A stretch of DNA of 64,000 nt from Escherichia coli (GTDB taxonomy: Bacteria; Pseudomonadota; Gammaproteobacteria; Enterobacterales; Enterobacteriaceae): the NCBI RefSeq assembly GCF_030384885.1, contig NZ_CP128613.1. One strand, 5' to 3'. The notes under the pieces are model-generated. The model saw only the letters and a list, made by a program, of their open reading frames with translations, searched no databases and was not told the DNA's origin. Shown in pieces: positions 9,882 through 12,591 of this stretch (positions are counted from its first letter, which is position 1; every line of letters begins with the position of its first letter). Made by a program: the position numbers and the translations under genes.

Positions 9882-10520
9882 TTAACGTGGTCGAATCCCC
9901 TCAAGAATAATCCGCTGCACGTTTTCAACCGTTTGATTGAAAAACACTTCATCGCGCAACGTGGCACCTGTCACCGCCTCCACCTGAGGGGCGAAATCGG
10001 CGTAATGTTGAGTGGAAGCCCAGATCATAAAAATCAAATGCTGCGGATCAATCAGCGCGAGTTTGCCGCTTTTAACCCAACCGGCAATCAGCGCCGATTT
10101 CTCATCAATTAACGTTTTCAAATCGCCCGTTAGCTCATCCATTAATAACGGTGCGCCTGCCAACATCTCCATACAGAACAGGCGCGAAGCCTGCGGATAA
10201 TCGCGGGAGACTTCCAGCTTCAGACGGATGTACTCTTTAATCGCTGCCAGCGGGGCGAAATCTTCTCGAAACGCTTTTAACGGTGCCAGCCAGATATCGA
10301 GAATCTGCCGCAGTACGGCTATATACAGCGCCTCTTTTGACGGAAAGTAATACAGCAGATTGGTTTTTGAAACACCCGCCAACTCCGCGATCTGCTCCAG
10401 CCTTGTGCCGTGAAAACCGAATTGTGAAAAAGTGTCCAGTGCTGCGCTAAGAATCGCTTTTTTCTTCGCGCTCACTGCGCGCGAACGTTTACCCGTTGTT
10501 TTCACTGCGCCTTGCGTCAT
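9882..10520 (-). CDS. rutR: TetR-family pyrimidine utilization regulator RutR
   Basis: 212 aa from MTQGAVKTTGKR; TetR-type N-terminal HTH. Confidence 0.9.
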   Translation of the reverse strand: MTQGAVKTTGKRSRAVSAKKKAILSAALDTFSQFGFHGTRLEQIAELAGVSKTNLLYYFPSKEALYIAVLRQILDIWLAPLKAFREDFAPLAAIKEYIRLKLEVSRDYPQASRLFCMEMLAGAPLLMDELTGDLKTLIDEKSALIAGWVKSGKLALIDPQHLIFMIWASTQHYADFAPQVEAVTGATLRDEVFFNQTVENVQRIILEGIRPR

Positions 10521-10626
10521 GCGCTCTCCCCTCTTGTTGATTGGCAACAGGATAGCAAAACCCCCGCCCGGCCTCGACCTTCTGCACTCTCATCGCGCAC
10601 GAATGCATGTTTTATGTGCAATTGTT

Positions 10627-10642
10627 TTGACCGTTTAGTCCA
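10627..10642. promoter_or_regulatory. Candidate RutR operator (ttgaccgtttagtcca)
   Basis: 12/14 match to the recalled palindrome TTGACCAnnTGGTCAA, in the rutR-rutA intergenic region. Confidence 0.35.
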
Positions 10643-10706
10643 CTTTTTTCCAGGTATTTTAGATAACTTAACATTAACACATTAATAACATTCACTTTTT
10701 AAAAAC

Positions 10707-10722
10707 TGGCATCCGCTTTGCA
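10707..10722 (+). promoter_or_regulatory. Sigma54 (-24/-12) promoter upstream of rutA
   Basis: TGGCAT-N5-TTGCA fits the TGGCAC-N5-TTGCW consensus; the rut operon is known to be NtrC/sigma54 dependent. Confidence 0.6.
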
Positions 10723-10750
10723 AACAAACCATTACGCGGCTGAAAAGGAT

Positions 10751-12591
<1,841 letters not shown>

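Follow-up and report, generated by a model that had tools for sequence, protein, structure and literature searches.

Start codon of Escherichia coli rutA and a conserved candidate RNA motif in its leader

Results

The rutA locus and its reading frames

The window, a 64,000-nucleotide stretch of Escherichia coli DNA, carries putA, rutR (on the opposite strand), rutA and rutB in this order. Over positions 10500-11000 it shares 100% identity with strain 2013C-4282, and this segment finds matches in 5,421 of the 5,426 complete E. coli genomes. The rut context is present, with rutB (isochorismatase family) downstream and the TetR-family rutR adjoining, according to the annotation of a strain that is identical over the compared region. 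At distant rutA loci, a TetR-family gene lies upstream in three out of four cases and an isochorismatase-family gene downstream, again in three out of four.

All features described below lie on the plus strand unless stated otherwise. As the original prediction had described, the longest rutA reading frame (10718..11899, TTG start, 393 aa) opens inside a sigma54 element at 10707-10722. Translation from the ATG at 10751 gives 382 aa, which is the K-12 MG1655 reference annotation NP_415532.3, and an in-frame pair of ATG codons at 10805-10810 gives 364- and 363-aa forms, the shorter (MKIGVF...) running from 10808 to 11899 including the stop codon. In K-12, position 10751 corresponds to 1074011 and positions 10805/10808 to 1073957/1073954. 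The protein encoded by rutA, a gene of pyrimidine degradation, scores 726 bits against the NCBIfam model TIGR03612 (RutA equivalog, pyrimidine monooxygenase), above the curated cutoff of 498.3.

A sigma54 promoter precedes rutA

The sigma54 (-24/-12) promoter TGGCATCCGCTTTGCA (10707..10722) is the sole match to TGGCAY-N5-TTGCW within the 64-kb window, a count that is not above chance (0.41 expected; at least one match in 33 of 100 shuffles). We accept the site as real not from this motif count, but because the identical K-12 sequence appears as the sigma54 ChIP-seq peak OS10 in PMC4591121, because the same K-12 sequence was recovered as a genomic-SELEX site (PMC8743547), and because the motif precedes rutA in each of the 79 full-length orthologous loci from Enterobacterales, 56-185 nt upstream of the ATG. 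With GG placed at -25/-24 and GC at -13/-12, transcription is predicted to start at 10733 (± 2 nt; K-12 1074029). Starts are predicted likewise in PMC4591121 (Bonocora et al.), 19 bp downstream of the motif centre, and the rutA entry given there has 18 nt between the predicted start and the gene start, as here; this agrees with the earlier claim that the 382-aa start at 10751 follows the expected transcription start by about 18 nt.

The TTG that opens the 393-aa frame (10718..10720) belongs to the -12 element TTGCA and precedes the predicted transcription start by about 15 nt, and its duplex with the anti-Shine-Dalgarno sequence reaches only -1.5 kcal/mol. It is not a start codon, and would be promoter DNA left untranscribed by this promoter. 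Our literature search, outside the primary rut papers, turned up no experimental N-terminus, mapped transcription start or ribosome profiling for nitrogen-limited rutA. The in vivo start codon and the exact transcription start given here are inferred.

Further upstream lie two adjoining NtrC-like sites, TGCACTCTCATCGCGCA (10583-10599) and TGCATGTTTTATGTGCA (10604-10620), which together span 10583..10620 and are not assigned to a strand. Each has three mismatches to TGCACC-N5-GGTGCA, and such matches in the window are not above chance. From the usual arrangement of NtrC enhancers, this adjoining pair, which precedes the sigma54 promoter by about 90-125 bp, is presumed to serve as its enhancer. 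Between the pair and the promoter, a RutR-box-like sequence TTGACCGTTTAGTCCA (10627..10642, likewise without strand) has three mismatches to TTGACCANNTGGTCAA. Boxes resembling the RutR box, GACCAnnTGGTCC, are also found upstream of rutA in the Pseudomonas, Variovorax and Methylobacterium loci, and RutR binding to the rutA-rutR region has been published (PMC2952853).

The conserved start of RutA is the ATG at 10808

Both family models place the beginning of RutA at the second ATG of the pair: positions 1-354 of the 355 in TIGR03612 align to residues 31-384 of the 393-aa ORF, residue 31 being the methionine encoded at 10808, and position 1 of PF00296 falls on the same residue 31. This ATG, together with a Shine-Dalgarno sequence of the GAGG/AAGG/GGGG type, is kept in 79 of the 79 full-length Enterobacterales orthologous loci. 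Among diverse RutA cluster representatives, 26 of 29 begin at the methionine aligned to 10808, and the three that are longer have unrelated extensions; cluster lengths among the top matches are mostly 360-371 aa. The four distant orthologs also begin at the 10808-aligned position, which is a methionine in three of them (Stutzerimonas, Pseudomonas and Variovorax). The PGAP annotation agrees, with 363 aa (e.g., WP_001353302.1) in every E. coli record examined, and the 363-aa form is carried by at least 1000 contigs, compared to nine for the 382-aa form.

The spacing of the ribosome-binding sequences points to the same codon. The Shine-Dalgarno sequence AGAGAGG (10795..10801, core GAGG at 10798-10801) forms a duplex of -8.6 kcal/mol with the 3′ end of the 16S rRNA and leaves a 4-nt gap to the ATG at 10808, while the duplex before the ATG at 10751..10753 reaches -5.4 kcal/mol with no gap. 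The original prediction held that 10751 lacks a clear Shine-Dalgarno sequence, and in functional terms this is right, as an AAGGA (10745-10749) is present but 1 nt from the ATG, and the longer match AAGGAU ends 0-1 nt before it. Its preference for the ATG pair behind AGAGAGG is now borne out by comparative, model-based and population evidence, and can be narrowed to the second ATG.

A ribosome positioned by the GAGG would meet the first ATG of the pair (10805..10807) before the second, and a 364-aa construct is found in the structures 6SGL, 6TEF and 6TEG, so that the main start could be this first ATG, giving a 364-aa MMKIGVF protein. We consider this unlikely. The ATG at 10805 lies only 3 nt past the GAGG, which ends 6 nt before the ATG at 10808, and both TIGR03612 and PF00296 begin at the second methionine. 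The codon aligned to 10805 is ATG only in the window and in two other loci, GTG in 20 loci and a non-start codon in the rest, i.e. in most relatives; hence, 10808 is the conserved start of the pair. In addition, a collection of 15 billion proteins lacks the exact 364-aa sequence, whereas it has the 363-aa form on at least 1000 contigs. It is possible that 10805 is co-used as a minor start, in E. coli only. In summary, rutA almost certainly starts at the ATG at 10808, the start that most databases already give, as supported by the PGAP protein WP_001353302.1, both family models and the conservation of the codon.

The K-12 extension is probably a longest-ORF artefact

The 57 nt upstream of the conserved ATG contain an in-frame stop codon in 39 of the 79 orthologous loci. 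Within the species, a CGA to TGA change interrupts the would-be extension (after MQDAVPRRTFTL) in 15 complete E. coli genomes, such as EC596, and rutA is annotated as intact in the TGA-bearing records examined. In some species, for example in four Enterobacter and two Buttiauxella loci, no more than 56-61 nt separate the beginning of the promoter motif from the ATG, and this leaves no room for an extension like that of the 382-aa form, whose start would fall within the promoter or upstream of it. When the 382-aa form is modelled with AlphaFold2, residues 1-17 have a pLDDT below 50 and lack secondary structure, the first barrel strand starting from residue 21; this low pLDDT is in part due to the absence of alignment coverage over the extension.

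The evidence on the other side is that most E. coli have no stop codon in the frame from 10751, and that the stretch is highly conserved within the species. The K-12 reference retains the 10751 start and the 382-aa protein has been crystallised (5WAN, compared to 363 aa in 6SGG and 364 aa in 6SGL), which means that the long RutA can at least fold. These observations would be compatible with dual initiation in E. coli, where a 382-aa isoform with an Escherichia-specific extension is made next to the 363/364-aa isoform. We regard such a second isoform as very improbable, as the AAGGA abuts the ATG at 10751 and the leader before it would be merely 18 nt long, the extension is interrupted by a stop codon in the 15 genomes mentioned above and altered by a non-synonymous change in about 299 genomes (O157:H7 among those sampled), the extension is predicted to be disordered, and its conservation tracks nucleotides and not a reading frame. 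Hence, the most likely start remains 10808, and the ATG at 10751 is most likely not a start of RutA. The 393- and 382-aa readings would be longest-ORF artefacts, possible only because the frame in E. coli is by chance not interrupted over these 19 codons, and we infer that the conservation of the extension within the species is due to an RNA motif.

The leader block is not coding

The predicted transcription start and the conserved start codon together define a 5′ untranslated leader of about 75 nt in the rutA mRNA (10733..10807). The leader includes a strongly conserved block, and the ATG at 10751 is the AUG inside the core AUGCAGGAUGCA of this block. Relative to the rutA ATG, the core occurs in all three frames (32, 15 and 11 loci). 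In 17 of the 58 leaders, the codon aligned to 10751 is none of the start codons ATG, GTG and TTG, and at the codon-5 position, the third base is conserved and the first two are variable, the opposite of a coding pattern. This spread over three frames, the missing start codons and the third-base conservation together imply that the block is not coding.

A second, out-of-frame ATG opens a mini-ORF at 10758..10775 (ATG CAG CGC CCC GTC TGA, encoding MQRPV), with an AAGGA 8 nt upstream, which is a possible, though unproven, uORF. An ATG aligned to 10758 is present in 39 of the 58 leaders and yields 5-codon peptides in many of them (MQRHV, MHRSA and MQCSA, each followed by a stop codon), and nothing in the 19 leaders where it is missing. 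The leader might hence encode a regulatory uORF that controls rutA, either the MQDAAPR... frame from 10751 or the 5-codon MQRPV. In most Enterobacteriaceae leaders an ATG does stand at the 10751 position and opens peptides starting with MQDA[AT]PR, some changes look synonymous (GAT/GAC, CGT/CGC and CCA/CCG/CCC), and in 14 leaders the end of the upstream ORF overlaps the rutA ATG; for the mini-ORF, the 5-codon frames of two bacterial families have their ends in one and the same column of the alignment. However, one frame in three will overlap with ATGA at its end in any case, the conservation ends after about seven codons, and the GCAGGA is kept whatever the frame. Eight leaders have neither of the two starts, and an ATG one codon upstream could rescue four of these, with three left without an evident start; two leaders have TAG at the first position. 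Since neither a conserved start codon nor a conserved reading frame is seen, as would be expected for a regulatory leader peptide, and since the base pattern at codon 5 is that of a non-coding sequence, we find control by a uORF improbable, and we favour a non-coding leader.

A conserved motif at the 5′ end of the leader

The conservation was examined in an alignment of 56 distinct leaders from promoter to ATG, where the conserved block begins at the predicted transcription start. The block can be drawn as a 5′-terminal stem-loop of about 38 nt (10734..10771), in which an outer stem pairs ACGCGGC (10734-10740) with GCCCCGU (10765-10771), with one C.C mismatch, and encloses an upstream GGA (10747-10749) and an inner hairpin GC-AGGAU-GC (within 10753-10761; core GCAGGAUGCA, 10753-10762). 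The information per column is 1.62 bits in the core hairpin and 1.2-1.4 in the stem arms, compared to 0.3-0.5 in the flanks and 1.46 in the sigma54 promoter. The core GCAGGA(U/A/C)GCA is more than 90% conserved across the 56 leaders, 55 of them have another GGA that precedes the core GGA by 9-11 nt, and the stem begins 26-29 nt after the start of the promoter motif in 54, i.e. at about +1 to +3.

In the promoter-to-ATG alignment, RNAalifold called no leader structure, only promoter letters and two pairs; in the MAFFT alignment, the 5′ arm is offset by one column between clades. As no structure was called, a hand-named structure was tested on the alignment of 56 leaders, and 83.7% of its cells are paired, with one covarying pair (A-U/G-C) that probably reflects a single evolutionary event. 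The inner hairpin has no support from covariation because its stem letters are invariant. Minimum free energy (MFE) folds show the outer stem and a hairpin presenting a GGA, and in eight of the nine single-sequence MFE folds, a hairpin of 2-4 bp (UGCA-GGA-UGCA or GC-AGGAN-GC) has the core GGA in its loop, the ninth leader showing it in the centroid fold only. The leaders of E. coli and eight others fold no better than shuffled sequences (z-scores from -1.0 to +1.5), which makes a stable aptamer-like fold unlikely.

Two other modes of action were considered and rejected. A riboswitch-like or ymdA-like release of the Shine-Dalgarno sequence did not fit as a general explanation, as the mean unpaired probability of this sequence was 0.33 compared to 0.38 in shuffled controls (long leaders) and the masking was inconsistent. 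As for pairing of UhpU with the leader, the duplexes that RNAduplex returned for long sequences ran over the full length and were meaningless, and shuffled sequences gave stronger ones.

The motif is kept across Enterobacteriaceae, Erwiniaceae and Serratia, and is absent from lineages with short leaders. The leaders of Stutzerimonas, Variovorax and Methylobacterium lack it too, and in one Pseudomonas leader another hairpin carries a GGA in a hexaloop. Within E. coli genomes, the 50-nt element is single-copy, and the core GGA is changed to GAA in about 299 complete genomes, O157:H7 among those sampled. A scan of 10500-10950 with Rfam 15 (E≤10) returned as its sole match a chance Bacteroides sRNA on the other strand, and our literature search for regulation of the rutA leader or UTR, or for rutA together with CsrA, found nothing relevant.

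The block could also act as DNA, as an operator or as a promoter-proximal element for a repressor or the sigma54 RNA polymerase. Its first base coincides with the predicted start of transcription to within a few nucleotides, its inverted repeats (TGCA-N3-TGCA and GCGNNGC...GCNNCGC) could be used by a dimeric DNA-binding protein, and both the single covarying pair and the fold energies are weak marks of an RNA stem. However, the spacing of about 30 bp between the outer half-sites would be unusual in an operator, several G-U pairs keep the pairing on the sense strand only, and the most conserved feature, the pair of GGAs found in 55 of the 56 leaders, fits the motif of an RNA-binding protein and not the known rut regulators RutR and NtrC. 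A role as DNA thus seems quite improbable to us, and an RNA motif is the reading that we prefer. In summary, the 57 nt that are translated in the K-12 reference are almost certainly untranslated leader, and they probably carry a conserved RNA motif that is apparently undescribed.

Discussion

Taken together, our account is that the NtrC-dependent sigma54 promoter (10707-10722) would drive transcription of rutA from about 10733, and that translation would begin at the ATG at 10808, directed by AGAGAGG (10795-10801), to give the 363-aa RutA (MKIGVF). The ATG at 10751 would then lie within the 5′ leader, and the conservation of 10734-10771 would reflect a 5′-terminal leader stem-loop with two GGA motifs and not a protein-coding sequence. 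We give this account as a whole, including the 393- and 382-aa forms as artefacts and the non-coding leader stem-loop, a probability of roughly 0.85. Compared to the original prediction, two refinements are suggested by the sequence comparisons: only the second ATG of the pair is conserved, and the high conservation of the extension can be traced to a probable motif in the leader RNA.

That rutA starts at 10808 is an ordinary point and is already known, as RefSeq PGAP uses the 363-aa form. The ambiguity in the start is real, yet settled in practice, and the K-12 reference is the outlier. Correcting the start codon is hence of modest practical value, since it is already the RefSeq standard and says nothing new on RutA itself. 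Nevertheless, 19 residues of the K-12 record are probably never made, and the long start affects residue numbering (5WAN compared to 6SGG), construct design, proteomics databases and leader reads that are labelled 'CDS'; for instance, a RIL-seq table labels as 'CDS' a rutA fragment that reaches K-12 1073988 (window 10774). The protein-database entry matching NP_415532.3 also has 382 aa. In all the sampled RefSeq E. coli records listed, including the PGAP-reannotated K-12 derivatives, 10731-10780 carries no annotated feature.

Once the false extension is set aside, a strongly conserved element of the leader comes into view, which is apparently undescribed. This motif, for which the evidence is sequence conservation, may be the only part of the present account that is new. 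As to what it does, we put forward as a tentative possibility that the 57 nt are part of an undescribed cis-regulatory RNA, a stem-loop of about 38 nt at the sigma54 start that displays two GGAs. If this is a real regulatory RNA, it would add a post-transcriptional layer to the textbook NtrC/RutR-controlled operon, and it would explain why the extension appears to be conserved. In our preferred reading, the leader stem-loop would be a candidate binding site for a protein of the CsrA type, which may act on the stability or on the translation of the mRNA. Judged from its motif, binding of CsrA to the rutA leader is plausible. If CsrA does bind, a nitrogen-scavenging operon with toxic intermediates, controlled by NtrC/sigma54, would also be under the post-transcriptional control of the Csr system, and the GGA to GAA variant of the O157:H7 type, found in about 299 complete genomes, would be an allele in which the site has been lost naturally. 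A CsrA CLIP-seq supplement contains rutG and not rutA; the experiment probably did not include the nitrogen limitation that induces the operon, and hence the absence of rutA from it is uninformative.

Compared to the existing annotations, the start at 10808 and the 363 aa supported here are the same as in the RefSeq/PGAP model and in TIGR03612, 'pyrimidine utilization protein A'. The protein is thus no different from the RefSeq/PGAP annotation, which is silent on the leader. NP_415532.3 in K-12 and the 5WAN protein are of the same gene and frame and near-identical downstream of residue 20, whereas the K-12 record starts 57 nt further upstream, at the equivalent of 10751, without a usable Shine-Dalgarno spacing and with a start and a frame that are not conserved.

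The promoter resembles other E. coli sigma54 promoters (glnK, glnH, astC, pspA, ddpX and potF) which, according to PMC4591121, have like rutA a consensus -24/-12 element, sigma54 ChIP-seq signal and a nitrogen-scavenging function. In the rows examined of Table 1 of that paper, the ordinary distance between the predicted transcription start and the gene start is 34-62 nt, compared to 18 nt for the 382-aa start, which would be the shortest leader among them. The 363-aa start lengthens the leader derived from the promoter from 18 to about 75 nt.

The closest likeness of the leader element is to CsrA targets. Its core GCAGGA(U/A/C)GCA contains the CsrB repeat CAGGA(U/A/C)G (PMC7652899), and K-12 csrB itself contains GCAGGACGC and GCAGGAAGC. 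As in CsrA sites, a GGA is predicted to lie in the loop of a short hairpin, with a second GGA 9-11 nt upstream (55 of 56 leaders), although the two rutA GGAs are closer together than typical bridged CsrA pairs. The leader does not look like a classical repression site, as the Shine-Dalgarno sequence in E. coli is GAAGAGAGG, which holds no GGA, and the start codon follows the GGAs at a distance of about 50-60 nt. Modes of CsrA action away from the Shine-Dalgarno sequence do exist in flhDC, pgaA and ymdA (PMC7652899). In glgC, one CsrA site is in a hairpin and another at the Shine-Dalgarno sequence, and the rutA GGAs differ in overlapping no Shine-Dalgarno sequence, which brings the mode closer to that of flhDC, where two sites near the 5′ end stabilise the mRNA; the rutA element likewise sits at the 5′ extremity of the predicted mRNA. 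Hence, if CsrA is bound, it would probably act at the 5′ end, as in flhDC, and not by occlusion of the Shine-Dalgarno sequence.

Natural variants of the rutA leader

We examined natural variation across the 57 nt that would extend RutA at its N-terminus and that we read as untranslated leader. A natural CGA to TGA change places a nonsense codon within the would-be extension of 15 complete E. coli genomes. One of these is EC596 (NZ_CP156718.1, positions 1299-1337 of the extracted locus, equivalent to window 10751-10789), where rutA is an intact 363-aa CDS. The match to this variant still lies under a rutA gene in the 13 records with annotation that were examined.

A second variant, found in about 299 complete genomes (O157:H7 being among those sampled), changes the core GGA of the leader motif to GAA at the equivalent of window 10757; one example is O157:H7 Xuzhou21. 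The rutA region of this type is the most diverged among E. coli (~94% identity), and the GAA core may represent a natural loss-of-site allele of the motif. Separately, E. coli KFu015 carries an IS1B insertion in the rutA leader, the junction corresponding to window ~10752. The insertion takes the place of both the sigma54 promoter and the motif's 5′ half, and rutA is still annotated in this strain. The rutR-rutA region was also found on plasmid-labelled records, at seven places in complete E. coli assemblies (for example, on plasmid pE300082_261).

The leader motif and its surroundings

The motif is a conserved, 5′-terminal stem-loop with two GGA motifs (10734-10771), the core of which, GCAGGAUGCA, is the CsrB repeat sequence. 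Rfam gave no match for this stem-loop, and no mention of it was found in the searchable literature. On the minus strand, a terminator scan in which the number of hairpins was that expected by chance picked out a weak terminator-like hairpin and T-rich tail at 10754-10770, formed by the motif's reverse complement.

Published RIL-seq data from nitrogen-starved E. coli contain rutA:::uhpU chimeras, which were observed solely under nitrogen starvation. The rutA fragment (10774-11252, corresponding to K-12 1073510-1073988) is labelled 'CDS', and its 5′ end extends into the actual leader. At rutB, a longest-ORF issue like that of rutA was observed (11857-11899), the longest ORF beginning at a GTG (11857), whereas PGAP places the start at 11899, which shares one base with the stop codon of rutA.

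Upstream of the promoter lie a pair of neighbouring NtrC-like sites and a sequence resembling a RutR box (10583-10642); in Pseudomonas, Variovorax and Methylobacterium, rutA is preceded by clearer boxes of the RutR type (GACCAnnTGGTCC). The Pseudomonas rutA leader (L090, a comparison locus) has a different hairpin, GCGCA-UCUGGA-UGCGC, with GGA in the hexaloop (~652-668 of L090), and a GGGAG within the Shine-Dalgarno sequence. The Pseudomonas hairpin and the enterobacterial leader share a theme, whereas their sequences are unrelated.
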